DNA from: Ostreococcus lucimarinus
Taxonomy: Eukaryota
Strand: one strand, 5' to 3'
Length of the DNA stretch: 64,000 nt
Assembly: GCA_000092065.1 (NCBI GenBank)
Contig: CP000589.1
In this document: positions 3,893 through 64,000 of the stretch, piece by piece
How positions within the stretch are numbered: position 1 is the first letter of the stretch
Layout: every line of letters starts with the position of its first letter
The notes under the pieces: model-generated
Databases searched by the model: none
What the model saw: the letters and a program-made list of their open reading frames with translations, nothing else
What the model was told of the DNA's origin: nothing
Program-made: the position numbers and the translations under genes

Positions 3893-3969
3893 TACTTTTG
3901 TGGAACCCGTGGAGTAAAGAGTCGTAACAACAATGAATCAAATATACAACATGTTTTCTATGTTTTCTT

Positions 3970-5787
3970 CTACAAAAGTCCCGCGCGCGTTATCTCGAGC
4001 AACTCGTCCCCTGGCGCCGAGCGCACGTGAAAGTTCACCAGCGTCGGTTGCATGTACGCGATGGAAATGGACATCGCGAACGGGTACACGGGATGAAAAA
4101 CGTACTGCACGCGTCGCTTGCTTCGTCCGTTATTCGCCAGGGAGTTGTTCAGCATTAACTTGAAACTCACGCGACGCCGTTGACCCTGTTGCGCGCTGAC
4201 GAATTTAATGCCAAAGTCCACGTGCGGCTGCAAGCGGTCGATGGCGGTGATCGTGCGCTCGTCGTAAGAGAAGAGCCTCTTGTCAAAGTACGGCGACAGC
4301 GACCTGAACTGCGGTGGGTAATCTTGCGTACGGAACAAGCGCGTGGCGATGGTGTTGAACGCATCCTCATCGTCGTCATCGATCTCCGCCGTGGACGTGT
4401 TACACACAGCCAGCGCCTCTCCTTGGCTCCCCGCGAAGCGCGCCCAGGGAAAATCGCCGCGCGGCGGAGCGTTTAACTCTTCGTCCACCATTCCATTCGT
4501 ATCGCTCATGCTCGTCGCCGTCTGCGTAAATGCATTCTTACTCAGATCGAAGACACCATACATCGTCGGCCCGATGACGTTGTCCCCGCGCCGCGCCAGC
4601 GCGTACTCGGGCGTGCCAAACTTGATGAGGAGCAAATTCGCGTCCAGGATGCGCACGCGAAGCATCACCAACGACACGTATCGCTCAAAGTTTCGGTGCA
4701 ACAGTCGCAGCGCGTCCGGGCTCGACGATCGTCGCGCGTCGTGATATAACGATGTCACCAAACGCTGCGTCAATCCGGTGAGCATCGACCGCCCCGAGGC
4801 GGCGAATCCCGTCGCGCGCGTTCGCGCCTTCTCCGCCGCTTGCGGTTCGGCGTCCATCCAAGCCCGCTCGCGCGCGTCTTGTGCGGCTACAGTTTCCTTG
4901 TCCTCGTTCGTGATGTGCTCACCGATCGATGCGACTTCTTCGAATCGTCCCTCTTCGTGCACTCGCAGAAAAATCACGCGCTGATGCTTCATCGACAACA
5001 CCGCGAGCGTGTCGCCTCGAAGACTCACCGCGCCGTTCCGCGGCAGGTGCATGAAATCGTCTCGAAACGTGAACGAGTCCAATTTCTCGCCCGTCTTCGT
5101 GCGCACGAGATGTAACACGATGCGCTGCATCGAAGGCGCTCCCGAAATCCCGCCCGACGTCTCCTGCGTCTCCGTTCCGCGTCGCCCTCTCGCTCGCGCC
5201 GCCGCTCGCGCCGGCGCCCCGTCTTCGTCCTCTCGCATCGCCCCTCCCGCGGCGACCGACGACCCATCCAACGGCGTCGCGCTCGCCGCGACGATGTACT
5301 CCCCATCGTGCACCTCGAGCATGAAATCCTTCACGATCGCGTCGTCTCCATCGCTCAGATGCGTCGTCCACTTCTCTTCAAAGTACGACCAAAACGATCC
5401 CATCGCCCGCTCCGTCGCCTCGCTCGCCACCACCTCCCCTCGCTTATCCCGCCTCAGGCACGCCCGCATTCCCCTGAACGCGTACCCCACCAGCTCTTGC
5501 TGATGTCTCGACACGCACAGCAGCATCGACCCGTCGTTCGTGAACTTTCTCGGCGCCACGTCGGGAAAATCGCACACGCGACACGTCGCGTTCGGCGTCA
5601 CCCCGCTCGCGTACACTCGCCGCGCGTTCGCGTGATCGTTCCCCGCGCCTCGTCCCAGCGCCGCGCGATCGAGCGTCCACCTGAAGACGCTCGCGCGCGA
5701 CGTCTCCGCGTCGCCGTCGCGTCTTCCGCGCGCCATCCCGTCGCCATCGTCGCCGTCGTCGTCGTCGCGCCGCCGCTTCTTATCCAT
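3970..5787 (-). CDS. DET1: DET1 (de-etiolated 1) homolog
   Basis: Full-length colinear similarity to plant and animal DET1: VFRWTLDRA, CDFPDVAPRKFTNDGSMLLCVSRHQQELVGY, DDFMHLPRNGAVSL, LLLIKFG, SPYFDKRLFSYDE, QYVFHPVYPFAMSI, VNFHVR. The track ORF 3970..7017 overruns by ~410 Arg-rich codons. Start set to ATG 5787 (MDKKRRRDDDD); alternative ATG at 5736. Confidence 0.8.
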   Translation of the reverse strand: MDKKRRRDDDDGDDGDGMARGRRDGDAETSRASVFRWTLDRAALGRGAGNDHANARRVYASGVTPNATCRVCDFPDVAPRKFTNDGSMLLCVSRHQQELVGYAFRGMRACLRRDKRGEVVASEATERAMGSFWSYFEEKWTTHLSDGDDAIVKDFMLEVHDGEYIVAASATPLDGSSVAAGGAMREDEDGAPARAAARARGRRGTETQETSGGISGAPSMQRIVLHLVRTKTGEKLDSFTFRDDFMHLPRNGAVSLRGDTLAVLSMKHQRVIFLRVHEEGRFEEVASIGEHITNEDKETVAAQDARERAWMDAEPQAAEKARTRATGFAASGRSMLTGLTQRLVTSLYHDARRSSSPDALRLLHRNFERYVSLVMLRVRILDANLLLIKFGTPEYALARRGDNVIGPTMYGVFDLSKNAFTQTATSMSDTNGMVDEELNAPPRGDFPWARFAGSQGEALAVCNTSTAEIDDDDEDAFNTIATRLFRTQDYPPQFRSLSPYFDKRLFSYDERTITAIDRLQPHVDFGIKFVSAQQGQRRRVSFKLMLNNSLANNGRSKRRVQYVFHPVYPFAMSISIAYMQPTLVNFHVRSAPGDELLEITRAGLL

Positions 5788-28985: not shown

Positions 28986-31820
28986 ATGCGCGCGAACCGC
29001 GACCGCGCGTTTCACGGCATACACTCCGACGCCACCGTCGCCGGAAGCGACGGCGCCGCGCCGCGTCGTCGCGACGAGCGCGAGCTCACCGAGCTCGACG
29101 TCTTCGGGACGCTCAAGGAAAAGCACCACAAAAACACCGTGAAAACGATGCGCGCGATGTACGCGGACGTCCGCGAGCGACGGCGAAGGGCGATGGAAGA
29201 TTTAACGCCGCTCCAACGCCGGGCGCGGGCGAGCGGAGGCGTGAATCCGTTCGATTGGTCGGATGGACACGTGGGACACTTTTACGAGTTCATGGTGGCG
29301 GAGAACGCGGCGAGCGAACGAGGAGCGAAGTCGCGCGCCATGGTGTTCGAGAGACAGGATGAGTCGGGACAAAACGTGGTGGAGGAATTATTCGATAGTT
29401 TTAGGGCGGACTACGCGGATCGGTGGCGGGCGGAGGTGGTGTGCGGGATCGACGCGAGCGCGGGGGCGTGCGAGCGGTATAGGGACGCCGCGGCGGAGGC
29501 GTGCGAAGCGTTGCTGGGAGACGACGACGCACGAGAGATGGGGGCGTGCGAGACGTATTTGCACACGTATGGGATCGTGCACGAGCATTGGCACGTGGAA
29601 GATTACGTGCAGGCCAGGAATACGTTGGGATACTCAAAGCCAAAGATGGAGGCGCCAAAGCGATATCCGGCGAATTTGTGGGGAGACTCGGTCTTGGCGC
29701 GCTCGAGAAACGGGGAATGTTCGGCCTGTAGTACTCAAGTGATCACTCTTCAAGGATATGTCGACGTGGATGTGGGGACGACCTATTCTTTAGGCGCCGA
29801 GCGAGAGGACAAGTGGGTGTTCGACGCCGAGCGATGGGCGCACGACGTACCAATGACAAAGTTCAAAATTGCGAAGACGTGTTGCACGAACGCGCAATTC
29901 GCGTGCTTTGTCGAAACAGGAGGTTATGCCGACAGAAGTCTTTGGAGTCACGAAGGGTGGCGATGGGTGGAAAAACGACGCGCCGCGGGTGAATTGTTGG
30001 CGCCTCTCGGTTGGAAAGTGTCGCCGTGCGTGAAATTCTTAAGCAACGGCGAAGAAGCACCCGCGTGTGAGAGTTGGCGATGTGCGTACTTTGATGAAGC
30101 GCCACGCGCACTACATCCGCAGCACCCTGTGTGCCACGTGTCGTGGTACGAAGCCGAGGCGTATTGTAACTGGATTGGCGCACGTTTACCGACTGAGGCG
30201 GAATGGGAAGCAGCCGCGAGAACGACGACGAGTTGGTCGACGGACAAACAAACCACAAAGCGTCGCACGTATCCGTGGGGTGAAGAATCTCCTTCAGAAG
30301 ACAAAGCAAATCTTGGTGGACACTTTGGAGGTACTATTGATGTCAGTGCTTTGGGTGCGGGCGATAGCGCGCACGGTTGCCGACAGATGTTGGGCAACGT
30401 TTGGGAATGGACGGCGTCGGCTTTCCTGCCTTTTCCCGGTTTTCAAATGGACTACCCGTATCGCGAAAACAGCTGTCCGTGGTTTGGGTATAGAAAAGTC
30501 GTCAAAGGCGGGTGTTGGGCGACGAGCGCGCCCATCGCGCGTGCGGCATATAGACACTCGTTTTGGCCGCACATGCACAACACGTTCAGTGGATTTCGCG
30601 CCGCTATCGGTGGCTCGCAAAAGCGCGCGCTTTGCATTCTTCCGCAAAAAATACAGAGCGGCGCAAAATGTGGCAACGTGGTCACGATGGAAAGAATTTC
30701 TTCGCATCTCGAGAAGAATCACATCATGAGCATCACGCGTTCGATTTTTGATCTGCCGCAGTCAAAGGAGGATTTGGCGAACATAATACACGCGATGAAC
30801 GTCGATTTGATCATCGTCTTGCACGCTTTCAAGTGCGGTGCCGTGATCGATACCGTACAGGCATATAAAGACATGCTCCCGCCTATCGTTCTAGTGCTCG
30901 GCGGCACCGACGTCAACGTGGATTCTCGAAAGTCTGCGCTCGCTGAGGAACAATTTCGCCGACGCGTTGACGTCGCGACAAAAGTTGTCTCGTTTTCCTT
31001 GTCCATGATAGAAGCCGCACCCAAAGGTGCGTTGAAATTTATCGAGTCGGACTCGACATCTAAAACCAAACTGATACCGCAAGGAGTCATGCTCCCGAGC
31101 ACGTTGAAGGCTTCAAAGCGCAAAAGGCTTGCAGATGAAACTGTGGAAACACCCGGCGAGCTTCAAGGCACCTCGCGGCCTGCGGACCTATCGATACCGA
31201 TCATGTTCCTACCTGCGGGATTACGCCCAGTCAAGGACGTGTGCTTCATAAACGACGCATTGACTGCGTATAACTCAAATGGAATCAAAGCACATCTGAC
31301 TGTGTGCGGCCCTTTCCTCGATTCGGCGTACGCGAAACGCGTGCGATGTCAGTTTGACGGTCGTTCCGATTGTACCTTGCTAGCAGGTGTCGATCGCGCG
31401 ACGCTTGTAAGGTTCATCGGCGAGGCGAAAGTTTTGTTGAACACCTCGGTATCGGAAGGTCAAAGCGGAACCATCGCTGAAGCGATGATGGTGGGGACTT
31501 TAGTCTTCGCGCGAGATATTCCAGGCAATCGTCAGCTCTTTGAGTTGTGCGAAGCGAGAGCGCTCGCAGCACTCGGTCCTGCGACGATAAAGGAGATGAA
31601 GGGCGATGGATGGGAGGTTCACCCGGTGGGAGTACTATTCTCGACTCCAGAGGGTTGCATGCGCGCTTTCGAAGCATTAGGTCTCGAAAGAGAGTCGACC
31701 GAAGACGTGGATGTATCGTTGATTAGACTCCGCGCGCGCGAAGGCGTCGCCGAACTGTCATTGAACGAAGCGAAGCGTTGGACGGAAATTTTAGACGAAA
31801 TCACCGCGCACGGTTCATGA
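28986..31820 (+). CDS. EgtB/OvoA-type iron-dependent sulfoxide synthase (DinB_2 + FGE-sulfatase) fused to a C-terminal GT4 glycosyltransferase domain
   Basis: N-domain: GHVGHFYEF and HEHWHVE (HX3HXE iron-ligand motif of EgtB/OvoA). FGE-sulfatase domain: VCHVSWYEAEAYCNWIGARLPTEAEWEAAAR, GNVWEWTASAFLPFPGFQ, VVKGGCWATS. C-terminal ~390 aa GT-B: LIIVLHAF...IVLVLGGTD and LLNTSVSEGQSGTIAEAMMVGTLVFARDIPGNRQLF. Single uninterrupted 944-aa ORF. Confidence 0.8.
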   Translation: MRANRDRAFHGIHSDATVAGSDGAAPRRRDERELTELDVFGTLKEKHHKNTVKTMRAMYADVRERRRRAMEDLTPLQRRARASGGVNPFDWSDGHVGHFYEFMVAENAASERGAKSRAMVFERQDESGQNVVEELFDSFRADYADRWRAEVVCGIDASAGACERYRDAAAEACEALLGDDDAREMGACETYLHTYGIVHEHWHVEDYVQARNTLGYSKPKMEAPKRYPANLWGDSVLARSRNGECSACSTQVITLQGYVDVDVGTTYSLGAEREDKWVFDAERWAHDVPMTKFKIAKTCCTNAQFACFVETGGYADRSLWSHEGWRWVEKRRAAGELLAPLGWKVSPCVKFLSNGEEAPACESWRCAYFDEAPRALHPQHPVCHVSWYEAEAYCNWIGARLPTEAEWEAAARTTTSWSTDKQTTKRRTYPWGEESPSEDKANLGGHFGGTIDVSALGAGDSAHGCRQMLGNVWEWTASAFLPFPGFQMDYPYRENSCPWFGYRKVVKGGCWATSAPIARAAYRHSFWPHMHNTFSGFRAAIGGSQKRALCILPQKIQSGAKCGNVVTMERISSHLEKNHIMSITRSIFDLPQSKEDLANIIHAMNVDLIIVLHAFKCGAVIDTVQAYKDMLPPIVLVLGGTDVNVDSRKSALAEEQFRRRVDVATKVVSFSLSMIEAAPKGALKFIESDSTSKTKLIPQGVMLPSTLKASKRKRLADETVETPGELQGTSRPADLSIPIMFLPAGLRPVKDVCFINDALTAYNSNGIKAHLTVCGPFLDSAYAKRVRCQFDGRSDCTLLAGVDRATLVRFIGEAKVLLNTSVSEGQSGTIAEAMMVGTLVFARDIPGNRQLFELCEARALAALGPATIKEMKGDGWEVHPVGVLFSTPEGCMRAFEALGLERESTEDVDVSLIRLRAREGVAELSLNEAKRWTEILDEITAHGS

Positions 31821-31938
31821 AGTAACTTATCATTTATTATTTCACGTATTATTTCCTCACCTAGTGCATCGCCGCGGCTAAGCAACCGAAGTTCACGACC
31901 GCCATTTCGTATTATTCGTTCGCTGACTATTTCTCTCT

Positions 31939-34452
31939 TCAGAGATGGTGCTCCTGCTGGCTCTTTCGCCTCTGAAACGACGCGAGAATATCCAGTTTTG
32001 CCCGTGTTTTCTCAGAGAATGGTGGCGCCGTGTTGTCGCCACCAGTGGATTGTGTCTGTCCAGGCAAGTAGTTTGCGTTAGCAGGTACGAGCGCGCCGAA
32101 CGGCTCGTAGTTCTTCAGAAGCCTCTCTAACTGTTCTGGACTTGCGTGTGTTGGAATCGGGGGATGATACAAACCCAAACGCCCTTTCGACATCAACTCG
32201 CTCTTCTCGCACTGGTACATGCGACACAGGAATGCTGTGCGAACTCGTCGTGATCGAGTCTCTGTTACTTCTGGCGATTGTGTGACTCGCATTTCGGGCA
32301 TCTCGTGGTCTGTTTTATCGTCCGTCGACCCGCCGTGTAGACCCGCGTTTTTAACGAAAGAAACATCATCTGTGGAATTCGCGAGCTGAGTCTGCGCAAT
32401 ACACAATCGCCTGATTCTTCGAATGGGAATGAGAGCGACCGCCCAGATACCAATGTTCGCCCAGAGTGTGGTAGAGATTCCGTCATCAAAGCGATAAAAC
32501 ACAAGACAGCCAAACAGGATTTGCAGCAGGTTGATCACTCGAGCAGTAATCGTGATGCCGAAGGAGTCCTCGCGGAGTTTCGGCGGCGCCGTGGTGAGAT
32601 ACAAACCTTGGTACTTTTTGCTCCAGTACAGCACGAATATCCCAAAGACGCCTACGGCGTAACTCACGGGAAGTGCCGGCGCGTAAATTGCCGATAGACC
32701 GAGAATCTTGAGCAACTCGGCGTACGAACGCGCCAGCTGGAAAGCTGGAGGTTGCACAAGACTCTCTTGCATCGACAACGTCTTCGACATTGGGGCGAGT
32801 ATTTTCACTTGGATAATGTGTTTGATGTTCATGTTCCTTAAAGGTAACAAGAGAACGTTGAACACTTGCAAATAGAACGCATATTCGACGAAACCACCGG
32901 GAACGTACCAGTTACACACACCATCTGCCTTCGACGAGCATCGATTGGTGATGATCGGAACGACGACGTAGTTGAGCAAGTTAACAAACGTCAACGTCGC
33001 GATCAGCATGTTTGTCTCAATCGTTTTCGTCTTATAAACCTCAAGTTGCGCGAGATAAACCGTCAATCGATCCAGCAAACCGTTAATGATAACCACTACG
33101 AGTGACGTGGAAGATGCGACGAGTTGCAGTCTGATGGACGAAGTCGTCGAAGCCGTAGATTGGAAAGCGACCTCGTTCGTAATGGTTTCGAGTTGATTAC
33201 TACGCAAGACCTCGAAAACGTACTGAATAACGCCTCCAACGCACAAAGCGCCCGCGAGCACGAACTTCGCCCCGATGGCGGTAGCCACAACCTCCCAGTT
33301 ACTGTCTCGTCGACGAAGGTGCTGCCAGTTGATATCGCTCGGTTCGGGCGCGCGAGTGACGATGAGTCGACGTCCGTTAAAGTCTGGTGAATGTTTGCCG
33401 GTGCATCGATCGATGATCGATTCTCCGTAATCGCCGCAGTGATCTTCGCAACAGTTGATCGCGTGCTGCTCGTAATTGAACGTCACCACGGCGCTCCCCA
33501 GATGCGAGTTGCCGTTTTCCCCGAGCGCCACGACCTTCGCCTTGAGTTCGGCAATTTTTGCATCCAACTTTACTAACGCTTCTCGCGTTGGTTTCGTACC
33601 TTTGAGTGCGATCATTCGATACAATTGTCGACGCAATAAGATGGATTTATTGATCTTCTCGTCCATGTTCGCGCCTTCGTTGTCATCGAGAATCGCCTGA
33701 ATTTCGTTTCTTCGCTGCACGGCGTTTTTGATTTCTCTCTCCATAGTCACGAGTCGTCGAGTGTTCGTAAGATGACAAACAGAAACAACCTCGCCGTAAT
33801 GCGAGAAAAAATCCGCGATTTGCTGTCGAGTCCACTCGTTCCCTTTTCCGAGCCCGGTGACGAGCACCGAGTAGTCGCTCGCGGTCACCACACTCGACTT
33901 GATGATCGCCGCCGCCGTCGCGCGATTACGAGTGTAAAACATGTCAAAGAGTAAAAACACCACAGTCACGACGATTGAAACCGCCTGAAACTCCTTAGGC
34001 GTTTTATTCACAGTGGCGGCGACCCGAGGTACGCAACACACCGCGGTCTGCGTCGTCGTCAGCACCTTCTCGAGCGTGCACGGATAGTGCGTCTGGCACG
34101 CATTCGTCGCGTCAAACGTCCCGATCGCTCCTTCGTAATCGCATCGCATCGGGCAGTTATAAAAACTCGCCAACGTCGGGACTCCACACCTCGACCCTTG
34201 ACTCGTGCTCAGCACAAAGCCGCCCGTCTCGTACGTCCTCGCGCACGTCGTCGTCGCGTCGGCTCCCGCCGTCGCGTCCCACCCCGTCACCGCGTACGAC
34301 GCCGTGAACGCCCTATCCGTCACGTTCGTCGTCAACGAGTACGCGTTGATTCCCGCGAGCACCACCGCGAGCAAACCGAACTGCAGCACCGTGTCCAGGT
34401 ACAGCGCCAGCGACACGCTGCTCGCGCCCACGCGTCTGTGACTCGCCGTCAT
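31939..34452 (-). CDS. CSC1/OSCA/TMEM63-family stress-gated cation channel (DUF221)
   Basis: TM0-TM2, then the cytosolic RRM-like domain (ASDYSVLVTGL...SAVVTFNYEQHAINC), then GRRLIVTRAPEPSDINWQHL (OSCA APEPxDVxWxNL) and the 7-TM RSN1 core. Start set to ATG 34452 (MTASHRRVGASSVSLALYL, immediately at TM0); track ORF extends to 34758. Confidence 0.8.
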   Translation of the reverse strand: MTASHRRVGASSVSLALYLDTVLQFGLLAVVLAGINAYSLTTNVTDRAFTASYAVTGWDATAGADATTTCARTYETGGFVLSTSQGSRCGVPTLASFYNCPMRCDYEGAIGTFDATNACQTHYPCTLEKVLTTTQTAVCCVPRVAATVNKTPKEFQAVSIVVTVVFLLFDMFYTRNRATAAAIIKSSVVTASDYSVLVTGLGKGNEWTRQQIADFFSHYGEVVSVCHLTNTRRLVTMEREIKNAVQRRNEIQAILDDNEGANMDEKINKSILLRRQLYRMIALKGTKPTREALVKLDAKIAELKAKVVALGENGNSHLGSAVVTFNYEQHAINCCEDHCGDYGESIIDRCTGKHSPDFNGRRLIVTRAPEPSDINWQHLRRRDSNWEVVATAIGAKFVLAGALCVGGVIQYVFEVLRSNQLETITNEVAFQSTASTTSSIRLQLVASSTSLVVVIINGLLDRLTVYLAQLEVYKTKTIETNMLIATLTFVNLLNYVVVPIITNRCSSKADGVCNWYVPGGFVEYAFYLQVFNVLLLPLRNMNIKHIIQVKILAPMSKTLSMQESLVQPPAFQLARSYAELLKILGLSAIYAPALPVSYAVGVFGIFVLYWSKKYQGLYLTTAPPKLREDSFGITITARVINLLQILFGCLVFYRFDDGISTTLWANIGIWAVALIPIRRIRRLCIAQTQLANSTDDVSFVKNAGLHGGSTDDKTDHEMPEMRVTQSPEVTETRSRRVRTAFLCRMYQCEKSELMSKGRLGLYHPPIPTHASPEQLERLLKNYEPFGALVPANANYLPGQTQSTGGDNTAPPFSEKTRAKLDILASFQRRKSQQEHHL

Positions 34453-40265: not shown

Positions 40266-41450
40266 CTAAAATCTCGCTAAAATCTCGAGGAGAATCGGTT
40301 GGACTTTCTTCCGACTCGCCTTGACGTCGAGCTGCGCGCGCGCGGATTTGAACACGCCGAAGTCGTTTTCGGGAAGACGCAGCGGCGCGAGCGGCGTTCG
40401 CTCGCCCAAGTCGCGCATGACGGCTTCGAGCTCGATCGAGCACGCGCTCGATTTCGTGACATCGATCTGACGCGCGAACGCGCCGTCGGCGTCGGCGTCT
40501 TCGAACGAGGACATCATAAATAACACGTCGATGCGCCGCGCGTCGACGAAGGCGACGATTTCATCGTTGACGGATGAAGCGTCCTGTCGCGCCAGCAAAT
40601 CCTGAAACCGCACGCCGAACGACGCGATGCCGACCTCGAGCGACCCCATCGTCCACTGCTTGTAATCTTTCGCCAAGAGTTGCGCGCACGAAAACGAGCT
40701 CTGATCGTGACGCGCGCGAGAGAGCGATTCGTACTCCGCTCGCGTCGCGTCCTCGTCCCATCCCAAAATATCTCGCAGCGATTCCGCAGCGGCAAAGTCC
40801 ACGGGTGCCGCCCGCGTCGTCGTCGCGTCCAGCATTCTCGTGTCCAACACGATCGCTCCCAGAAGCAAACGCGCGACGTCTCGCGCGACGCCCTCGTCCG
40901 CGGCTTTCGCCACGACGTCCCTGTACACCAAACTCGAGCACGATCCGATCAACTCGATGACCCTATCCGCCCGTTCCGCGTACATCCCCGAATCCTCGTG
41001 ATGATCAATCACCCGAACCACGCGCGCTTGCCACGCGTCCGGAAACAACCGCGCGCTCAGCGCGTTATGATCCACCAACGTCACGCTTCGCGGCGTCGCC
41101 TTCGTCGCCGCCGCCGCGACGTCCTCCGCGCACGTCAAATCGCCCAACTTCACCCCCGCGTTCGCCAGCGCCAAGACCACGTCGGGTCGTAATTTCAGTT
41201 CTTCCCTCGCGCACGACACGATCGGCACCGCGCGCGTTTCGCGCTCGCCATCGTCGCGTCCGCGCTTCGCGCTCGCCGCTCGCGCCGTCGCCACCGCGCA
41301 CGCCACCGAGTCCAAATCGCACGCCTCGTTCCCCACGCTCACGTCGCACGCCCCCGGATCGCGCGCGAACGCCTCCTTGGCGTCGCGCAGGAACGTTCGC
41401 AGCGCGTTCGCCTCGCGCGCGCCGTCGTCGACGTTCGCGCGCGTCGCCAT
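40266..41450 (-). CDS. PPX1: DHH-family exopolyphosphatase (PPX1/prune-like)
   Basis: DHH motifs VGNEACDLDSVACA and VIDHHED, a Gly-rich motif VLDTRML, and KDYKQW (yeast PPX1 KDYKQF). Colinear with yeast Ppx1 over ~390 aa. Confidence 0.8.
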   Translation of the reverse strand: MATRANVDDGAREANALRTFLRDAKEAFARDPGACDVSVGNEACDLDSVACAVATARAASAKRGRDDGERETRAVPIVSCAREELKLRPDVVLALANAGVKLGDLTCAEDVAAAATKATPRSVTLVDHNALSARLFPDAWQARVVRVIDHHEDSGMYAERADRVIELIGSCSSLVYRDVVAKAADEGVARDVARLLLGAIVLDTRMLDATTTRAAPVDFAAAESLRDILGWDEDATRAEYESLSRARHDQSSFSCAQLLAKDYKQWTMGSLEVGIASFGVRFQDLLARQDASSVNDEIVAFVDARRIDVLFMMSSFEDADADGAFARQIDVTKSSACSIELEAVMRDLGERTPLAPLRLPENDFGVFKSARAQLDVKASRKKVQPILLEILARF

Positions 41451-41681: not shown

Positions 41682-43283
41682 ATGACCGTCGCGCGCGACG
41701 CCGACGCGCGCCCGCGCGCGCGCGCGGCGACGGAGAGCCTGAAGCGGGCGCAAGAGGCGATTTGGGAAATCTTAGCCTCGGCCGATTCGAGCGACGACGA
41801 CGACGCGTCGAGCGACGCGCCGGACGAATCGATCGCGCGCGAGCGGTCGACGTTCGATATCGCGTCGCCCGCGGGAGCGGCGCGGGAAGGCGCGCGCGAG
41901 GCGGGGACGGGGACGCCGGTGGGCGCGCGACTGGACGCCGCGGCGCTGGCGCTGGAGCGGCGGCGCGCGGAGGCGCTGGACGCGGCGGCGAGCGATGAAC
42001 GCGCGGCGGCGATGGAACTGAGAGAGGCGCGAGAGGCGTTGGAGCGCGCGCAGACGACGGGGCGAGGGCTGGAGGCGCTGGAACGCGCGGTGGCGGAGAG
42101 GGATTTGGAGATATTTAAGCGGGACGACGAGTTGCGAGCGCTCAGAGAGGAAGTCGGGCGGTTGCGGACGCGCGAGGACGACGCGGGAGAGACGATGATG
42201 GTGAGCGCGTCGATAGCGGATGCGAATACGCGCGCGGCGAACGCGGAGGAGGGCGCGAGGGCGATGCGTGAGGCGCTGAAGGACGCGGAGACGAAGAACG
42301 CGCGCGAACGCGCGGCGCTCATGGATGAGCTTCGCGAGTCGCGCGCGCTGGCGGCCAAACACGCGAGAGAGGCGCACGCGCGCGAGGAGGCGAACGCGTC
42401 GAGCAGTGGACGCATCGATGAGGTGGTTTTCATGAGGAAAGAGCTGGACGCGATGGCGAAGAAGGTATCCATCGCCGAAGCCGTTGCCGAGAAGCTCGAA
42501 AGAATCGTCGCCCAAAAATCAGAAGAGGTGTTCAACGCAACGCAAGAGCGAGACGCGCTGCGAAAGAAGCTGAAGACGACGAGCGAGACGATAGATTCGC
42601 TGGAGCGCGAGTGGCTTGAGTTCAATCGCCAAGGTCTGAGCGCGCAAAAAGCGCTGAGCGCCGAAAACGAAGAGCTACACAAGATTGTCGACGACTTGAA
42701 ATCCGCCGAAAAAGATGGCTTCGCCGAAGCCGCGGGCGAAATAGAAGAGTTGAAGGCGCGATTGCGGACGTTTGAGAGCGAATCTGGCGTATCCAACAGA
42801 AGTGTCGATAGAAATCTCGCGCGCGAGTCCATCACATCCTTGAGATCCAAGGTGCGCGAGCTCAAGGGCGACATCGAAGCCAAGGACGCCCAAATCGAAG
42901 ACTTGCGAAACGCGCTGTCGCAAAAGTCCATCATCGAAGCCGTGAACGCGGAGAAGGATGCCGTCATCACCGCGCTGCAAGCACAAATCAACGCGAGTAA
43001 CTCTGCCGCACCTCGATCGGATTCTGAATTCGCCGTGTCCACGCAGAACGACGGCGATATCGACGTCTTGGATGAGTTACAAACCGTCGCGAAGACGCTT
43101 CGTCGAGAAAACGCGGGGCTGCGGCGAGAACTCGAAGACGTCGACCCGGACGTTCTAGAAGAGTGCATCGCGCTGAGTCGACGCGTGACGGCTCAAAACT
43201 CTCTACTCGCGAGCTACGAGGAGCGCTTGGTGCGCTACACCGACCAACTAGGGATTCCGTTCACGCCCGAGGCGCGCCCGTAG
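41682..43283 (+). CDS. long coiled-coil protein
   Basis: About 530 aa of heptad-rich Ala/Glu/Arg/Lys/Leu sequence with no globular domain. Start set to ATG 41682 (MTVARDAD); track ORF starts at 41598. Confidence 0.5.
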   Translation: MTVARDADARPRARAATESLKRAQEAIWEILASADSSDDDDASSDAPDESIARERSTFDIASPAGAAREGAREAGTGTPVGARLDAAALALERRRAEALDAAASDERAAAMELREAREALERAQTTGRGLEALERAVAERDLEIFKRDDELRALREEVGRLRTREDDAGETMMVSASIADANTRAANAEEGARAMREALKDAETKNARERAALMDELRESRALAAKHAREAHAREEANASSSGRIDEVVFMRKELDAMAKKVSIAEAVAEKLERIVAQKSEEVFNATQERDALRKKLKTTSETIDSLEREWLEFNRQGLSAQKALSAENEELHKIVDDLKSAEKDGFAEAAGEIEELKARLRTFESESGVSNRSVDRNLARESITSLRSKVRELKGDIEAKDAQIEDLRNALSQKSIIEAVNAEKDAVITALQAQINASNSAAPRSDSEFAVSTQNDGDIDVLDELQTVAKTLRRENAGLRRELEDVDPDVLEECIALSRRVTAQNSLLASYEERLVRYTDQLGIPFTPEARP

Positions 43284-57328: not shown

Positions 57329-58318
57329 CTAGTTGCTAATTTTGCTCGCTTGGAGTCGTTTTTTAATCGTGCAGTTCGCGATGAGCGCATCTAAGTCGTC
57401 CTTCCATCCCAGCATTGAGCACAGCTCGGCGACGCCGTCGTCGCACTGACCCAAGAACAACGCGTCACGATAATTTGTCGCCTCATCAAAGTCAAATCCC
57501 GTGCCCCGACCGAGCCCAGCCATCCGATATAATTTCGTGACGCGCGTGTTCTGCGCCTCGCCGCAACGTTCGAGATTAATCAAGAGCCTCGGTACGTGCT
57601 CCTTCGGCCTTTCGATCAAACCGGCGAACGGATGGACGACTAAACTCGTTCCGATGACGATGAGCAAGTCGCACACCTCGAAGTCTTTTTGCGCGCACTC
57701 GAAGAATCGACGCGGAAGATTTTCGCCAAAAAACACGATATCCGGCTTGACAAACTCGCCACATTTGGCGCACGTCATCGGCGTTCCCGCACGACACGCT
57801 CTCTCCACTTCGTAGATGTTGGCGTCGTGTCCATTCAAACACTTCGCGCTGTCGAAATTACCGTGTGCGGCGACGACTTTATCCTTCGGCAGCCCCGTGG
57901 CGCACTCCAACGAATCGATGTTTTGCGTAAAGCATCGCCGCAACAGCCCGCGGTCGTGCAACAGCTTAATGAAATAATGCGTCGGCGTCGGGGCGTAGAG
58001 CCCCGGATACAGATCCTTCGCGAGCTTATAAAACGCCTCGGGCTTCTCCCTAAAGTACCCAAGCTCGAAAATCGCCTGCGGATACGGCAAATCGTACTCG
58101 CCCAATCGCGCGTACAACCCGCGCTCGCTTCGAAAATCCGGTATCCCCGCGCTCACCGATATCCCCGCTCCCGTCATCACCACCACGTTTTTCACCCCGC
58201 CGCGCTCGATGTGCTTCGCGATCCCGCGAAGATCGAACGTTTCGAGCGCCGTCGCCGCCGCCGCCGCGCTCGACTCGCCGAGTCGCTCCGCCGCCAGGCG
58301 TTCCATGAGCTCCAGCAT
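57329..58318 (-). CDS. SIRT2: NAD-dependent protein deacetylase, sirtuin class I (SIRT2/Hst2-like)
   Basis: GAGISVSAGIPDFRS, QNIDSLE, the catalytic HGNFDSAKC, a Zn ribbon CAKCGEFVKPDIVFFGE, and LLIVIGTSLVVHPFA. Start set to ATG 58318 (MLELMERL). Track ORF continues to 58852 through an acidic, poly-Asp/Ser region whose coding status is unclear. Confidence 0.8.
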   Translation of the reverse strand: MLELMERLAAERLGESSAAAAATALETFDLRGIAKHIERGGVKNVVVMTGAGISVSAGIPDFRSERGLYARLGEYDLPYPQAIFELGYFREKPEAFYKLAKDLYPGLYAPTPTHYFIKLLHDRGLLRRCFTQNIDSLECATGLPKDKVVAAHGNFDSAKCLNGHDANIYEVERACRAGTPMTCAKCGEFVKPDIVFFGENLPRRFFECAQKDFEVCDLLIVIGTSLVVHPFAGLIERPKEHVPRLLINLERCGEAQNTRVTKLYRMAGLGRGTGFDFDEATNYRDALFLGQCDDGVAELCSMLGWKDDLDALIANCTIKKRLQASKISN

Positions 58319-58387
58319 CTCCGTCGACTCCCGACCGAACCCGTACCCCGACGACGACGACGACGACCCGCTCGACGATGTTTCCGA

Positions 58388-58393
<6 letters not shown>

Positions 58394-58427
<34 letters not shown>
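58394..58427. repeat. (GTC)11 trinucleotide tract
   Basis: gtcgtcgtcgtcgtcgtcgtcgtcgtcgtcgtcg; it encodes poly-Asp on the minus strand, in frame with the sirtuin ORF extension, and lies in the SIRT2/RPN7 divergent spacer. Confidence 0.8.
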
Positions 58428-58428
<1 letters not shown>

Positions 58429-58655
58429 GCGCGCCGCCGTCGGCCCCGCGCGAGGCATCGACACCGTCGCGCGCCGCGCTCGCGTCGTCCGCGCCCGCGT
58501 CCGCGCGCCGCGCGCGCGCGCGCGCCTCGTCGTCGTCGCGCGCCTCGTCGTCGTCGCCCATCGCGCCGCGCGTCGTCGCGTCCTCGCCGGTCAATGCCGT
58601 CGCGCCGGCCGCGCCGCGCCACATCGACGCGCGCGCCGACCGCGCCGCCGACGCC

Positions 58656-59879
58656 ATGGGCGCGGACGTCGAGATGCGCGACGACGCGGACGCGACGACG
58701 GCGATCGCCGACGCGGACGCGGACGAGACGGCGCTCGACACGTCGCGCGACGACGACGTCGACCTCGCGCAGAAGATTTTCGATCTCGAGCTCGCCGAGG
58801 GCGCGCGCGACGAGACGGCGGCGGTGATGGCGATCGTCGAGCGACGGAACATGGCGGCGACGTACGCGACGCTGTGCGAGCGGTTCGCGTGGCGCGCGGA
58901 CGCGGCGCTGACGGCGAAGATGGCGGACGCGAACGCGAAGCGGTTGGGAGAGATCGAAGCGAAGATCGAAGACGCGAAGGAAAATCTCGGGGACGTGGAG
59001 ATACGGGACGCGATGTGCGAGCGGGCGGAGTTTTACGCGAGCGTGGGGGAGATGGAGAAGAGCGAACGGGCGTACGAGGAGACGGAGGCGAAGACGGCGT
59101 CGATCGGGCAAAAGATGGACTGCGCGTTCGCGCTGATGCGCGCGCGGTTTTCGAGGTTGGAGCTGCACGAGGTGAAGAAATTGATCGAAAAGATTAAGGA
59201 TATGCTGGATCAACCGGGCGGGGGGGATTGGGAACGAAAGAACCGGTTGAAGGTGTACGAAGGGTTGCACGCGGTGGCGACGAGGAATTTTGAAACGGCG
59301 ACAAAGCTGTTTTTGGACTCGTTGAGCACGTTCACGTCGTACGAGCTGTTGTCGTACGATGATTTCGTGTTCTACACCGTCGTCTGCGCCGTGGTTTCGC
59401 TGCCGCGCACCGAACTCAAGGCGAAGGTGATCGATTCGCCCGAGGTGTTGAGCGTGCTCAACCGATTGCCCGGTCTCGGCGACTTTTTAAACGCCCTGCA
59501 CAAGTGTGATTATCGCACCTTCATGTCGGCGTTCCCCGTCGTCGCCGCGCAAGTGGAAAAGTCGGTGTGGATGAATCCCCATTTCAGGTACTTTTTGCGC
59601 GAGGTGCGCGTCGTGGCGTACGCGCAATATTTGCAAAGCTACAAGAGCGTGACGGTGAAGAGCATGGCGGATAGTTTCAACGTGAGCGAAGACTTTATCG
59701 ATCGCGAGCTCTCGCACTTCATCGTTTCTGGTAGATTGAACTGCAAGATTGACAAGGTTTCGGGGGTGTTACAAACCAACCGACCGGACTTGAAGAACTC
59801 GCTGTACCAAACTTTGATCAAGGACGGCGACGCACTGTTGAACAACGTATCCAAACTCTCTCGAGTGATAGATCTTTAG
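58656..59879 (+). CDS. RPN7: 26S proteasome regulatory subunit RPN7/PSMD6 (PCI domain)
   Basis: Colinear with PSMD6: NMAATYATLCERFAW, NLGDVEIRDAM, GGDWERKNRLKVYEGL, FLDSLSTFTSYEL, HFRYFLREVRVVAYAQYLQSYKS, GRLNCKIDKVSGVLQTNRPD, KLSRVIDL. Start set to ATG 58656; track ORF begins at 58209, antisense to the sirtuin gene. Confidence 0.9.
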   Translation: MGADVEMRDDADATTAIADADADETALDTSRDDDVDLAQKIFDLELAEGARDETAAVMAIVERRNMAATYATLCERFAWRADAALTAKMADANAKRLGEIEAKIEDAKENLGDVEIRDAMCERAEFYASVGEMEKSERAYEETEAKTASIGQKMDCAFALMRARFSRLELHEVKKLIEKIKDMLDQPGGGDWERKNRLKVYEGLHAVATRNFETATKLFLDSLSTFTSYELLSYDDFVFYTVVCAVVSLPRTELKAKVIDSPEVLSVLNRLPGLGDFLNALHKCDYRTFMSAFPVVAAQVEKSVWMNPHFRYFLREVRVVAYAQYLQSYKSVTVKSMADSFNVSEDFIDRELSHFIVSGRLNCKIDKVSGVLQTNRPDLKNSLYQTLIKDGDALLNNVSKLSRVIDL

Positions 59880-60095
59880 ACGCGCGCCGGTGACGATTTG
59901 ACCACCTTGGCGATTTTAAATCAACCGTTTTCAAGCCATCAGACGAATTCTCCGCGCGCCGAAATCGGGCGTCTCTCAAACCAAGTCGCTTTTCGCGCGA
60001 ACGACGCGCGGGCGACGCTTTTTGTCACCGAAATTCAGCCTAAACCACCGCCCGCCTTCACTCCGCCGCGCAGCGCGCGTCGCGACTCGATCGCG

Positions 60096-61031
60096 ATGTA
60101 CGATGACAGCGACAGCGACAGCGACATCGCCTACGTCAGGCACGTCTTGCGGTACATGTACCCAGGATCGACGCCGAAAAACGGCCGAGTCATCGTGTTG
60201 CCGGCTGGGACGCTCGGCGACGGGAAGTACGGCGACGAGGAAATCGACGGCGAGTTCTGCGTCGCGCTCCTGATGGACGACGGCGTGAACGTCGATCGAT
60301 GGAGGGTGCGCGTGTACGATAACTCGTTCGACGGTTGGCGTTTACTCGGCGTTGGGATCACGAGCTTGTGTTGGAACCACGTCGGACCGTCGCTGCGCAG
60401 GTGCGAGCTACAGCTCGAGGAAAAGCCGCAGCCGGCGTCGACGTCGGCGATGGATGCGTTGGACTTGAACACGTGCCGAGCGCCGGCGGTGGGAGAGCAG
60501 AACGGTTATTTTGGCATAGGCATCTACAACGGAAAGAATACGCAGAATCTGGGCACGCTGTGGAGAAGCGCGTATCAACTGGGCGCGGCGTTCGCCTTCG
60601 TCATCGGGCGTCGATTCAAAAAAGAAGCGAGCGACACGCCAAAGTCATGGACACAGATTCCAACGTTTGAATACAGCGATTGGGATGATTTCGTGCGTAA
60701 ATCGCCCGTCAGTGCGGTGTGGGTCGGCGTTGAGATGGGCGGTACCCCGCTCGAAAATTTTGAGCACCCGCGAAACGCCGTGTACATACTCGGCAGCGAA
60801 GACACTGGGTTGAACACGACGATGCTTCGAGCATGTCAGCACCACATCGCATTACCAACCACTGGTACGCGGAGTCCGAGTTTCAACGTCGCCGTCACGG
60901 GCGCAATCATAATGTACGACCGCGAGCTCAAAAGGCGAGCCGCCGCGGCGAAGCTCGCCGCGCTCCCGACGCAAAATCGTCGAGACGGCATAGACAGCGT
61001 GAAACCACTCAAGTCGAGCGCCTCGCATTAG
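60096..61031 (+). CDS. SpoU/TrmH-family (SPOUT) RNA 2'-O-methyltransferase
   Basis: SPOUT motifs GYFGIGIYNGKNTQNLGTLWRSAYQLGAAF, VYILGSEDTGLNTTMLRACQHHIALP and SFNVAVTGAIIMYD. The track ORF starts at 59898, only 19 nt after the RPN7 stop; ATG 60096 (MYDDSDSD) is the more plausible start. Confidence 0.65.
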   Translation: MYDDSDSDSDIAYVRHVLRYMYPGSTPKNGRVIVLPAGTLGDGKYGDEEIDGEFCVALLMDDGVNVDRWRVRVYDNSFDGWRLLGVGITSLCWNHVGPSLRRCELQLEEKPQPASTSAMDALDLNTCRAPAVGEQNGYFGIGIYNGKNTQNLGTLWRSAYQLGAAFAFVIGRRFKKEASDTPKSWTQIPTFEYSDWDDFVRKSPVSAVWVGVEMGGTPLENFEHPRNAVYILGSEDTGLNTTMLRACQHHIALPTTGTRSPSFNVAVTGAIIMYDRELKRRAAAAKLAALPTQNRRDGIDSVKPLKSSASH

Positions 61032-61129
61032 TCTTTTTTAGCCTGTTTATAGTCTGTCATTCACGCTTCGTTCGCCCTCGCGTCGCGCCCTCGCGCCGCG
61101 CCGCGCCGCGCCCGGCGCGCCGGCGAGTT

Positions 61130-61157
61130 GGATAAGTGCGCGCCGAGAGCCTTATCC
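61130..61157. promoter_or_regulatory. inverted pair of GATAAG (I-box-like) cores ~190 bp upstream of the LOV-HK start
   Basis: GGATAAGtgcgcgccgagagcCTTATCC is a perfect 7-bp inverted repeat with a 14-bp spacer. It is the only AT-containing element in an otherwise pure-GC spacer. Confidence 0.3.
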
Positions 61158-61336
61158 GTACTTCGCGACGTCCGACGCCGCCCCGAAGGACTTCTGCGCG
61201 CCCGACGCGACGCGCGGGCGTCCAAGACGTGCGTTAGGGGCGTCTGGCGCGCCGCCGATCGCGCGCGCGTCGCGCGTCGCGCGCGAAGGCGTCGTAAAGC
61301 CGCGTGCGCGCGGCCGCCGCGACGTCGACGCGCGCG

Positions 61337-64000
61337 ATGTCGTGCCCGTTCGGCCACGATCGAGCGCCCGCGGCCGTCGCGACGGTGGACGACGATGACA
61401 TCACGAAAGTAATCGTCACCGACGGCGAGCGAGGGACGAAGCGACGGGCGGTGGAGGAGGCGACGAGGGAGGAAGACAAACCAGAGACGCCGAGGGCTGA
61501 CCCCGCGGCGCTCGAGGCGGCGCTCGAGGAGGAACGAGCGCGCAGAAAGCGCGCGGAGAACGAGTTGATGAGCTTGAAGGCGATGTATAGACAGTGCAAG
61601 GCGATGTCGACGGTGCAGAAGGATATCGCGGTGAAGGAATTAGCGATGGACTCGTGCGCGGAGGGTATCACCATCGCGGACTTTACGCAGCCGGACCAGC
61701 CGTTGATTTACGCAAACGTGGGATTCGAGGTAATGACGGGATACAGCGTGCAGGAGACCGTAGGGCACAATTGTCGATTCTTACAAGGGCCGGGGACGGA
61801 TCAAAACGAACTCAACAAGCTTCGGAATGCGATTAAGAAGGGCGAGGCGGTGACGGTGGTGTTGAAGAACTACAAAAAGTCTGGCGAAGAGTTTATGAAT
61901 CAGTTGTCGCTCACGCCAATTCGTGACGCAGACGGACAAGTGATGTACTACGTGGGAATCCAATCCGATGTCACCGAGCTGTTTAAGCGACGCGATGACG
62001 AGCTGAACGCGCTAAAAATGATGGCACGCGCCGAGGCGGCGACAGAAGCCAAGTCGAGATTTTTAGCGCACATGTCGCACGAGATTCGCACGCCTTTGAA
62101 TGGGCTCATCGCCGTGGGGCAATTATTAGAAGACACAAATTTGGATCGGTTGCAAAGGGAGTACGTATCTACGGTACGTACGAGTGGGGAAACGTTGCAA
62201 GCGCTCATCAGCGATATTCTTGACTTCAGCCGGGTCGAGGCAGATAAGCTCGTGCTCCAGTGCGAACCGTTCCACCCAGAGGTAGTCATCGGCAACGTTA
62301 TGGAGATAACAGCCATGCAGTCAGCGAAGAAGAAGATAAACATCGGTTACCACGTGGATATCGGGGTGCCCAAAATCGTCATGGGTGACGCGATGCGCTT
62401 GCAACAAGTGTTGCTGAATTCCATCAGTAACGCCATCAAGTTCACCGACGCAGGCAACATCATGATTCGACTTTACCTCGGCAGAGAGGACACGACGGAA
62501 GTCGCGAGGCAAGCGTTCTTGGAAGATGGCGAAGAAACGCACCACGCCAAGATGGTTCGCTCCTATTCCGCCGGTTCGCTCGCGTCGACACAAAAGGACT
62601 GGCTCGCGCCTCTCAAGTGCTTCCTGCACATGTGCCCGCATTTCTCGGGCAAGTTGAGCGAAGGTGGGAACAAGCCGACGGATGATATGACATCGGATAA
62701 TGAATCCTGGTTTTTGCACTTTTACGTCAAGGACACGGGCATGGGGTTAGATCAAAGCACAATTCATAAGATCTTTCAATCGTTTCAGCAGGTTGAAACG
62801 GGGGCGACGCGCAAATACGACGGCACTGGTCTCGGCTTGGCGATTTCGCGCAAATTGTGTGAAGCGATGGGCGGAACGATGTGGGCCGAAAGTCAAGGGC
62901 TCGGCAAGGGGTCGACTTTCCATTTTTGTATTAAGTGTAAGGCGGTTTCGGAGGATTGGATGAAAGAGAACCAAAAATCGCGCAAGCAACTCGCGAGCGG
63001 GGCGGAGTCGCTCCGGCAGCTCGAGCGCGATTTGAGCGTAGATTATGCGGCGCATTTCAAAAGACCAGGCGAAAAGCTGAGCGTGGTTCTTTACGACGAA
63101 TCTGACATGCTGCGGAGCACGTTGTCCGTGGTGTTGAAGCGATGGGGATTTGCCGTGACGGTTTACGGCAACGCGAAAGATCTCGTCGGTTACATGAGCA
63201 AAGCGATGGATGGTGAAGTTACCGATGTCGCCATTATCGCTGAGTTGAGCAACAACGCCGTAGATTTCATTTATGACTGGGCAAAAGGCAGAGGTTTGCT
63301 GAACGGAGTGAGCGCGGGGCAAGGAAACACGTTCAGTATCCAGTCAAGTGGAGATGACAAACGCCGTTCCAGCGACACGAGCAAGCTTCCACCTTTTGTC
63401 CTTTCGACTTGGCCAGTGGTGCAATCAACCGGCTTTGACACGTCGGACCCTCGGTGTGCGTGGGCAAAGGATAGCGTAGAGGGAACGGAGTCGAGCATTG
63501 ATTCCGTCAAGGGAACCGCCGTTCGAGATTTCTTCTCCTCCATACGATCGCATCTAATTTCGAGACCGGTGCGACACAACAGACTTCGTCGTACTCTCGA
63601 GACGGTTCTTGACGAAAAGGCTCATCACGCCGACGCCGCGGACACTGCGCGTACGGATAGTCCGACGCGAGCGTCTGGGTGCACTCGACGGAAGGTCGAT
63701 TTCGAAGATGGTGTCTCTGGCCAACATGTCTCTGGCCAACATTTGCGAATCTTACTTGCAGAGGATCATCCCGTGAACATGAAGGTCGCAAAAGCTGTGT
63801 TGAGCCGCCTCGGGCACTCCGACGTCACTGGGGCGAAGGATGGGGCGGACGCGTTGGCCAAGGTGCAGGCTGACCCCGCGGGACTCGACGCGTTCGACAT
63901 CGTTCTCATGGACTTACACATGCCAATCATGGGCGGTATCGAGTGTACGCAGCAGTTGCGAAAGCTTTACCCAGACTGCAAGGTGCCAATCATCGCCGTC
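61337..64000 (+). CDS. LOV-domain hybrid histidine kinase (LOV-HK-pseudoREC-REC), 3'-partial at window edge
   Basis: LOV core ITIADFTQPDQPLIYANVGFEVMTGYSVQETVGHNCRFLQGPGTDQ...YKKSGEEFMNQLSLTPIRDADGQVMYYVGIQSDVTE. H-box SHEIRTPLNG, N-box LLNSISNAIKFT, D/G1 DTGMGLD, G2 GTGLGLAISRKL. A degenerate receiver (VVLYDESDML...DVAIIAEL) is followed by a true receiver (ILLAEDHPVN...DIVLMDLHMP). The frame stays open to nt 64000. Not in the ORF track because no stop falls inside the window. Confidence 0.85.
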   Translation, partial: MSCPFGHDRAPAAVATVDDDDITKVIVTDGERGTKRRAVEEATREEDKPETPRADPAALEAALEEERARRKRAENELMSLKAMYRQCKAMSTVQKDIAVKELAMDSCAEGITIADFTQPDQPLIYANVGFEVMTGYSVQETVGHNCRFLQGPGTDQNELNKLRNAIKKGEAVTVVLKNYKKSGEEFMNQLSLTPIRDADGQVMYYVGIQSDVTELFKRRDDELNALKMMARAEAATEAKSRFLAHMSHEIRTPLNGLIAVGQLLEDTNLDRLQREYVSTVRTSGETLQALISDILDFSRVEADKLVLQCEPFHPEVVIGNVMEITAMQSAKKKINIGYHVDIGVPKIVMGDAMRLQQVLLNSISNAIKFTDAGNIMIRLYLGREDTTEVARQAFLEDGEETHHAKMVRSYSAGSLASTQKDWLAPLKCFLHMCPHFSGKLSEGGNKPTDDMTSDNESWFLHFYVKDTGMGLDQSTIHKIFQSFQQVETGATRKYDGTGLGLAISRKLCEAMGGTMWAESQGLGKGSTFHFCIKCKAVSEDWMKENQKSRKQLASGAESLRQLERDLSVDYAAHFKRPGEKLSVVLYDESDMLRSTLSVVLKRWGFAVTVYGNAKDLVGYMSKAMDGEVTDVAIIAELSNNAVDFIYDWAKGRGLLNGVSAGQGNTFSIQSSGDDKRRSSDTSKLPPFVLSTWPVVQSTGFDTSDPRCAWAKDSVEGTESSIDSVKGTAVRDFFSSIRSHLISRPVRHNRLRRTLETVLDEKAHHADAADTARTDSPTRASGCTRRKVDFEDGVSGQHVSGQHLRILLAEDHPVNMKVAKAVLSRLGHSDVTGAKDGADALAKVQADPAGLDAFDIVLMDLHMPIMGGIECTQQLRKLYPDCKVPIIAV

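Follow-up and report, generated by a model that had tools for sequence, protein, structure and literature searches.

The 64,000-nucleotide stretch of Ostreococcus lucimarinus DNA analysed here (assembly GCA_000092065.1, contig CP000589.1; hereafter the window) ends inside an open reading frame (ORF) for a histidine kinase with a LOV domain, and the question it raises is whether this gene is anything other than the LOV-HK already described from Ostreococcus tauri. An earlier note on this DNA had singled out a His in place of Arg in the LOV core motif, a long insertion in the kinase, and a degenerate receiver preceding a canonical one. We find that the gene is already known in kind: it is an ordinary Mamiellales LOV-HK whose His 'variant' is the norm of the lineage, identical to the best-studied algal LOV1, and it is very probably the expected LOV-HK of an Ostreococcus other than O. 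tauri, orthologous to the blue-light photoreceptor kinase that feeds the clock. A pseudo-receiver and a cytokinin-receptor-like insert in a LOV-HK may amount to a small refinement of the annotation, not to a new kind of system.

This identification is carried by full-length similarity to the O. tauri LOV-HK and by a shared gene neighbourhood, which place the protein in the Mamiellales LOV-HK orthologue group. The window protein has 73% amino acid identity at 100% coverage to the O. tauri LOV-HK (P0003, annotated as a signal-transduction histidine kinase) and belongs to a graded set of orthologues of Ostreococcus-, Micromonas/Mantoniella- and Bathycoccus-like type. The two Ostreococcus proteins share their domain order, an N-terminal MSCPFGH, an insert with MCPHF in the catalytic ATP-binding (CA) domain, a pseudo-receiver (with VAVIAE in O. 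tauri) and a receiver. They differ in the LOV core motif, GKNCRFLQG there and GHNCRFLQG here, and by 27% divergence that lies mainly in disordered segments. The same gene order, a SpoU methylase followed by LOV-HK and a convergent AI-2E-family transporter, is found in the window, in a metagenomic contig (L001) and at three further Ostreococcus-like loci (L002-L004). Together with the Pfam domains described below, the match to the O. tauri protein bears out the earlier assignment of the gene to an alga of the Mamiellales and of its product to the LOV hybrid histidine kinases. The founding study of the O. tauri LOV-HK is reportedly that published by Djouani-Tahri et al. in Plant J in 2011. LOV-HK occurs in every Mamiellales genome examined, and O. 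tauri has just one histidine kinase besides it. It is proposed to pass its signal via one HPt protein to TOC1 and further response regulators, with LOV-HK, Rhod-HK, HPt and TOC1 as members of the Ostreococcus pathway (PMC4343026; PMC12704426).

The ORF starts with an ATG at 61337 (+ strand), 14 codons downstream of an in-frame stop, and stays open for 888 codons to the end of the window. It is intronless, and its single exon encodes, in order, a LOV domain, HisKA, HATPase, a degenerate receiver and a true receiver. As had been observed, the gene runs off the window; the 3' extension that had been proposed to recover the full coding sequence was obtained through L001, which is 99.8% identical to the window over 3,574 nucleotides and in which the frame continues to a stop at codon 930. 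The full protein (P0001) has 929 residues, so that 41 codons lie beyond the end of the window, including those for Thr889 and Lys911 of the receiver, both of which are present in L001/P0001. Between positions 61337-64000 of the window and 911-3574 of L001 there are five nucleotide differences, four of them non-synonymous (L430M, T452K, H477R and T753A); two of these changes fall in the insert of the CA domain and one just past it.

Pfam scores were judged against curated cut-offs, residue conservation was assessed across 45 curated full-length orthologues, and the full-length protein was modelled with AlphaFold2 (AF2; mean predicted local distance difference test, pLDDT, 71.7). All features lie on the + strand:

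61337..64000, +: LOV-HK coding sequence, 888 of 929 codons, 3' end beyond the window
Residues 1-53, +: disordered N-terminus (AF2 model, pLDDT about 30)
61502..61651, +: long N-terminal helices, residues 56-88 and 92-105 (AF2 secondary structure)
61664..61978, +: LOV (PAS) domain, residues 110-214, with the core motif GHNCRFLQG at 61763-61789 (Pfam PAS_9, 68.8 bits)
61973..62242, +: signalling helix from the LOV core to DHp, residues 213-264, with His248 at 62078-62080, and DHp helix 2, residues 271-302 (AF2; Pfam HisKA)
62264..62944, +: HATPase_c catalytic ATP-binding (CA) domain, residues 310-536 (Pfam, 80.5 bits, in two stretches ending at residue 533)
62471..62713, +: 81-residue insert between the N box and the G1 box, residues 379-459 (AF2 mostly low-confidence or disordered, pLDDT 39-64)
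63068..63616, +: pseudo-receiver (receiver-like), residues 578-760, with Glu636 (63242-63244) at the phospho-Asp site and two disordered loop insertions (hhalign, AF2, Foldseek)
63617..63745, +: disordered linker, residues 761-803 (pLDDT below 50 over residues 762-799)
63746..64000, +: canonical receiver, residues 804-888 of 804-925, with E809/D810 and the phospho-Asp D859 at 63911-63913 (Pfam Response_reg)

All the strings quoted in the earlier note are present: GHNCRFLQG (residues 143-151), HEIRTPLNG (248-256), DVAIIAEL (630-637) and LAEDHP...LMDLHMP (807-863). The Pfam PAS_9 match spans residues 111-214, the LOV core occupies residues 110-211 of the AF2 model, and the adduct-forming Cys had rightly been read as retained (Cys146). 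Residues N145, C146, R147, F148, L149, Q150, N178, N188 and Q209 are invariant in the orthologues, and the flavin-contacting set is complete (R147, the phosphate Arg R163, N178, N188 and Q209). The protein thus has the GXNCRFLQ motif with its adduct Cys, the PAS fold and the remaining flavin-contact residues of a LOV domain. Ahead of the core, the two long helices are predicted to form probably a coiled coil or A'alpha cap.

The kinase is equally complete, in agreement with what had been proposed from its H box (HEIRTPLNG) and N, D and G boxes. HisKA (residues 238-302) scores 72.0 bits in Pfam, its phospho-accepting H248 is invariant, and so are the box residues N361, N365, D466, G468, G470, F480, G496, G498 and G500; with the H box in DHp and the N, G1(D), F and G2 boxes all present, the protein is a HisKA-type sensor kinase. 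We considered whether the locus might be a pseudogene or non-functional copy, and this is ruled out by the intact ORF, the invariant catalytic residues and the abundance of near-identical alleles in metagenomes (182 cluster members).

In the AF2 model one unbroken helix (residues 213-264) joins the LOV core to DHp through His248. The front half of the model matches YF1 (4gcz) with E 2.5e-27, and YF1 and other LOV kinases (4gcz, 8a3u; the bacterial EL346 and Brucella LOV-HK) likewise have a LOV core joined by a continuous helix to DHp/CA. EL346 and Brucella LOV-HK are much poorer structural matches (E 1e-15 to 1e-18, template modelling (TM) score 0.25-0.36), and the register of the LOV-DHp linker relative to YF1 is given by an approximate length match only (157 versus 154 aligned residues). 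Unlike the window protein, these LOV kinases are without a pseudo-receiver, a fused receiver or an insert in the CA domain.

The counterpart of that insert is found in plants. The insertion between the N and D boxes had been described as unusually long, at about 80 residues; its length (81 residues) is real, and it is long by comparison with bacteria and known from plant-type kinase cores such as this one. Across 16 aligned Mamiellales orthologues it measures 77-126 residues. Cytokinin receptors carry an insert of more than 50 residues in the CA domain (PMC10779265), and a plant cytokinin-receptor-type chain (7p8e) aligns with this region from end to end (188 versus 187 residues); at the insert the ethylene receptor ETR1 is shorter by about 58 residues and the bacterial GacS by about 69. 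A Pfam search with the isolated insert gave nothing meaningful. Plant cytokinin-receptor-type kinases (AHK4/CRE1; 7p8e) are also the best sequence match to the kinase core among solved structures (E 1e-52), and they share with the window protein, besides a large insert at the same site, the order CA domain, pseudo-receiver, receiver (PMC10779265). In contrast, cytokinin receptors sit in the membrane and sense through a CHASE domain, while the window protein is soluble with a LOV sensor, and their pseudo-receiver has no detectable sequence similarity to the one found here, the alignment with 7p8e covering the kinase core and the true receiver only. Both the insert and the pseudo-receiver belong to the normal make-up of the family, being kept in every orthologue examined, and are not peculiar to the window gene.

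The only feature of the gene that is perhaps new is a pair of Cys-Pro motifs, one at the N-terminus and one in this insert:

61343..61363, +: N-terminal Cys-Pro motif SCPFGHD, residues 3-9, in the disordered N-terminus (conservation of M-x-C-P-[FY]; pLDDT about 30)
62618..62644, +: second Cys-Pro motif CFLHMCPHF, residues 428-436, in the insert of the CA domain (conservation in orthologues)

In the long ORFs of the window (about 24,000 residues) CP-x(0-2)-H occurs only twice, both times in LOV-HK. Nearly every Mamiellales orthologue holds one to three copies, against 0.03-0.05 expected from shuffles, and none was found in the non-Mamiellales LOV-HKs compared. Every Ostreococcus-like and Bathycoccus-like orthologue keeps the form [HL]HMCPHF, and M-x-C-P-[FY] invariably opens the protein in six Ostreococcus lineages despite divergent flanks; in the upstream DNA of three sister lineages the first exon starts MPCPFAP, MSCPYGF or MSCPFAH and ends ...GTKR at an AG/GTGCG donor. 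Both SCPFGH (residues 2-7) and MCPHF (residues 432-436) have the make-up of a haem-regulatory motif, a Cys-Pro with a hydrophobic residue in a flexible region, and lie in low-pLDDT segments, as is typical of such motifs. Peptides with CPFH or CPHF bind ferric haem with dissociation constants of 0.3-0.6 uM, about 0.3 uM for a CPHF-containing peptide (PMC10377097, Table 1).

These observations could be taken to mean that the motifs (MSCPF.., MCPHF) form a haem-regulatory or other thiol-based metal or redox site, and that the kinase integrates haem, iron or redox state with blue light. We regard this as unlikely: the resemblance is one of motif only, the His that follows the N-terminal Cys-Pro is not conserved, the positions of the motifs differ between genera, the N-terminal MSC may rather direct lipidation or processing, and the C-x2-H-x-C-x-H of Ostreococcus could be a small zinc site. 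Its fuller form, in which the Mamiellales LOV-HK would be a dual-input sensor whose kinase activity or stability is modulated by blue light and by a putative haem (or thiol-ligated metal or redox) input at the Cys-Pro motifs of the N-terminus and ATP-lid insert, seems a shade less likely again. Haem acts on animal clock proteins in a comparable way. Were the proposal true, tetrapyrrole or iron status would be tied to the algal circadian clock, and the motifs are a possible lead to such a further signal, be it haem, metal or redox, acting on a clock photoreceptor.

Two other explanations of the motifs were considered. A zinc knuckle (C-x2-H-x-C-x-H, residues 428-435) was ranked low, its first Cys being missing in Bathycoccus-like inserts and the whole motif in Micromonas-like ones. 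N-terminal lipidation of MSC is ruled out as a common explanation, with Cys-Pro motifs internal in the Micromonas-like and Bathycoccus-like proteins; in Ostreococcus itself such lipidation may occur.

A second conserved block, (D/G)(I/L/V)T(K/R/E)(V/A)I(V/I)..G..GTKRR, sits amid the fast-diverging, disordered N-terminus (residues 22-36 of the window protein, nucleotides ~61400-61444) and in exon 1 of L002-L004; the basic stretch GTKRR may serve in nuclear localisation or mark a site of processing. In the three sister Ostreococcus-like lineages a short 5' intron follows ...GTKR (L002 984-1200, L003 937-1200, L004 1077-1200; donor AG/GTGCG, acceptor CGCAG/), which is found neither in the window species (61337-61460) nor in O. 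tauri. Because of this intron, the metagenome gene calls P0002, P0005 and P0012, and probably others, miss exon 1 and have wrong start codons.

We return to the reading of the gene as an ordinary LOV-HK and to its C-terminal half. The segment following the CA domain had been called a receiver-like domain that lacks the phospho-Asp (DVAIIAEL, residues 630-637), and hhalign, AF2 and Foldseek all agree with this. A profile of the segment from 52 orthologues aligns with the profile of the true receiver (hhalign Prob 90%, E 1.6e-6) in the register beta1-alpha1-beta2-alpha2-beta3, placing D587/E588 on the acidic pair E809/D810 and Glu636 on D859, and a profile search against PDB sequences gave weak matches only, almost all of them to receivers. 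The AF2 model, built on a 24-sequence alignment, has the order b1a1b2a2b3a3b4a4b5a5, with pLDDT above 90 in the core and two disordered loop insertions, and the top 50 Foldseek matches of this model in the PDB are all CheY-like receivers with probability 1.00. The segment thus has the (beta-alpha)5 fold of a receiver. It has also lost the phospho-Asp: in 31 Mamiellales sequences the phospho-acceptor position is occupied by Glu (27) or Gln (4), and never by Asp. A pseudo-receiver of this kind would be non-phosphorylatable and, by analogy with related kinases, most likely has a regulatory or docking role.

The receiver that follows is canonical throughout, as had been proposed. Response_reg (residues 805-886) scores 56.5 bits as cut by the end of the window and 90.4 bits at full length, and all five active-site residues (E809, D810, D859, T889 and K911) are present and invariant in the orthologues.

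Several points weigh against this account. Pfam recognises no family at E <= 10 in residues 572-765, so that the pseudo-receiver call rests on the profile-profile and fold evidence, that is, on a 60-column match and a predicted structure. By the strict definition of Bourret et al., a pseudo-receiver is a domain recognised as PF00072 without key residues, and in that sense residues 572-765 do not qualify. The earlier note had held that failure of the downstream domains to pass profile thresholds for a receiver would speak against its reading; the true receiver passes, whereas the pseudo-receiver fails in Pfam, and yet the fold evidence supports a receiver. Every testable feature that defines the LOV-HK group is present save Pfam recognition of the pseudo-receiver. 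The account of the window protein as a whole is drawn from sequence and model, and autoinhibition of the kind discussed below for ShkA is put forward by analogy only.

A decayed duplicate receiver that serves as a passive spacer, with no role of its own, would also explain the missing Pfam match, the two long disordered loop insertions and the fact that no other folded part of the protein varies more. We consider this improbable, a little more so than the haem proposal. The confidently predicted (beta-alpha)5 core stands against it, as does the invariance of W603, W692-P693, P744 and L750 in 45 sequences; the acidic pair, Thr691 and Lys/Arg743 are also retained in all 45, down to 37% overall identity, which argues for purifying selection on a specific surface of the pseudo-receiver. 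Moreover, equivalent domains are functional in ShkA and in cytokinin receptors.

The more distant Chloropicon-like LOV-HKs (P0051-P0060, P0069; alignments A2/A3) still have Asp at the beta3 position of the pseudo-receiver (FVIIDKD) and lack both loop insertions; in the set used for residue conservation, nine Chloropicon-like relatives hold Asp at the phospho-acceptor site. Going by these sequences, the domain may still be, or once have been, a true second receiver, and its degeneration may have taken place in Mamiellales. Where the linker begins, K(A/T)HHAD..DTA (residues 761-775, nucleotides ~63617-63661; alignment A1 columns ~1201-1216) is conserved only among Ostreococcus-like sequences.

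The published domain cartoon of LOV-HK shows LOV-HK-REC only (PMC12704426, Fig. 2B legend), where REC stands for the receiver; such cartoons omit the conserved pseudo-receiver and the cytokinin-receptor-like insert. In the library searched we found no link between LOV-HK and pseudo-receiver terminology.

How, then, might these parts work together? In the AF2 model the CA domain (residues 310-536), pseudo-receiver (582-760), linker (762-799) and receiver (805-925) follow one another. Of the structures in the PDB, Caulobacter ShkA (6qrj; E 9.7e-29 over 690 alignment columns) matches the full-length model best, with YF1 and the other LOV kinases next. ShkA is likewise a soluble hybrid kinase, of the layout DHp-CA-Rec1(pseudo)-linker-Rec2. 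It differs in having no photosensor, in being switched by c-di-GMP on Rec1, the c-di-GMP site and DDR linker motif being ShkA features, and in lacking the insert of the CA domain, at which the alignment is split (243-377 and 460-530). In ShkA the true receiver is held in an obstructing position and released upon ligand binding to the pseudo-receiver.

From this anatomy, read in the sequence and in the predicted model, we infer a possible course of signalling. Blue light would form the Cys146-FMN (flavin mononucleotide) adduct in the LOV domain; as in YF1-type LOV kinases, the coiled-coil signalling helix would carry the resulting change onward and so alter autophosphorylation of His248. The phosphoryl group would then move intramolecularly from His248 to Asp859; the single HPt protein would accept it from there and hand it on to TOC1 and other response regulators. 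As for the pseudo-receiver, its part would be one of regulation or docking, setting the position of the true receiver or holding it back, like Rec1 of ShkA and as proposed for cytokinin receptors. The kinase half of LOV-HK is built like the plant AHK/CHK and the ShkA-type kinases, and autoinhibition and release is therefore worth considering in clock models.

The LOV core motif, with which the earlier note had opened, can be dealt with more briefly. The LOV consensus is GXNCRFLQ with X unspecified (PMC4428443). Among the 45 orthologues the GxN position holds His in 18, Arg in 11, Asn in eight, Lys in five and Gln in three, and among 120 homologues the nonapeptide starts GR in 35, GH in 30, GK in 23 and GN in nine, besides other forms. 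By lineage, the residue is Lys in O. tauri, Asn or His in other Ostreococcus, and His in every Micromonas/Mantoniella-like sequence. The closest solved LOV domain is LOV1 of Chlamydomonas phototropin (CrPhot; 1n9l, 8qi8/9), with 56% identity, an identical GHNCRFLQG and the same phosphate-binding Arg, onto which the AF2 model of the window LOV superposes with TM 0.93 and a root-mean-square deviation of 0.8 A; unlike LOV-HK, it is part of a Ser/Thr-kinase photoreceptor and not of a two-component kinase. In CrPhot LOV1 the residues on either side of the FMN phosphate are Arg58, the Arg of NCR right after the reactive Cys57, and Arg74 (bioRxiv 10.64898/2026.08.02.742302), and R147 and R163 are their equivalents in the window protein.

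The statement that the Arg of GRN contacts the FMN phosphate is thus mistaken, and the His cannot be called a notable variant. The earlier note had itself allowed that GHNCRFLQG in all Mamiellales orthologues would make it the lineage norm; the orthologue alignment bears this out in substance, though not in every sequence. His144 is a neutral, lineage-typical residue at a variable surface position. That replacing Arg by His144 weakens the phosphate contact and gives unusual flavin binding or photocycle kinetics is very improbable: the position does depart from the GRNCRFLQG common in LOV domains, but X is free in the consensus, His is the commonest residue among orthologues, the textbook functional CrPhot LOV1 has the identical nonapeptide, and the phosphate ligands are Arg58 and Arg74, both kept here, not residue 55; for these reasons we find His144 of little interest. 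In two Ostreococcus-like proteins (P0005 and P0006) the motif reads GHNCRFLQD, with Asp for the otherwise near-invariant Gly after the core-motif Gln.

Upstream of LOV-HK, and on the same strand, lie genes for a 26S proteasome RPN7/PCI subunit (58209-59879) and the SpoU-family RNA methylase (59898-61031), in the close packing typical of Ostreococcus. The CCA1 evening element (AAATATCT) has no match near the LOV-HK promoter (61031-61337). Its core AAATATCT has only two matches in the window, at 40766-40773 (+) and 42109-42116 (-), where 0.45 are expected and 10 of 100 shuffles reach two. The G+C content, about 0.61 on average over the window, is low at 2001-4000 (0.47) and at 30001-34000 (0.51-0.53).

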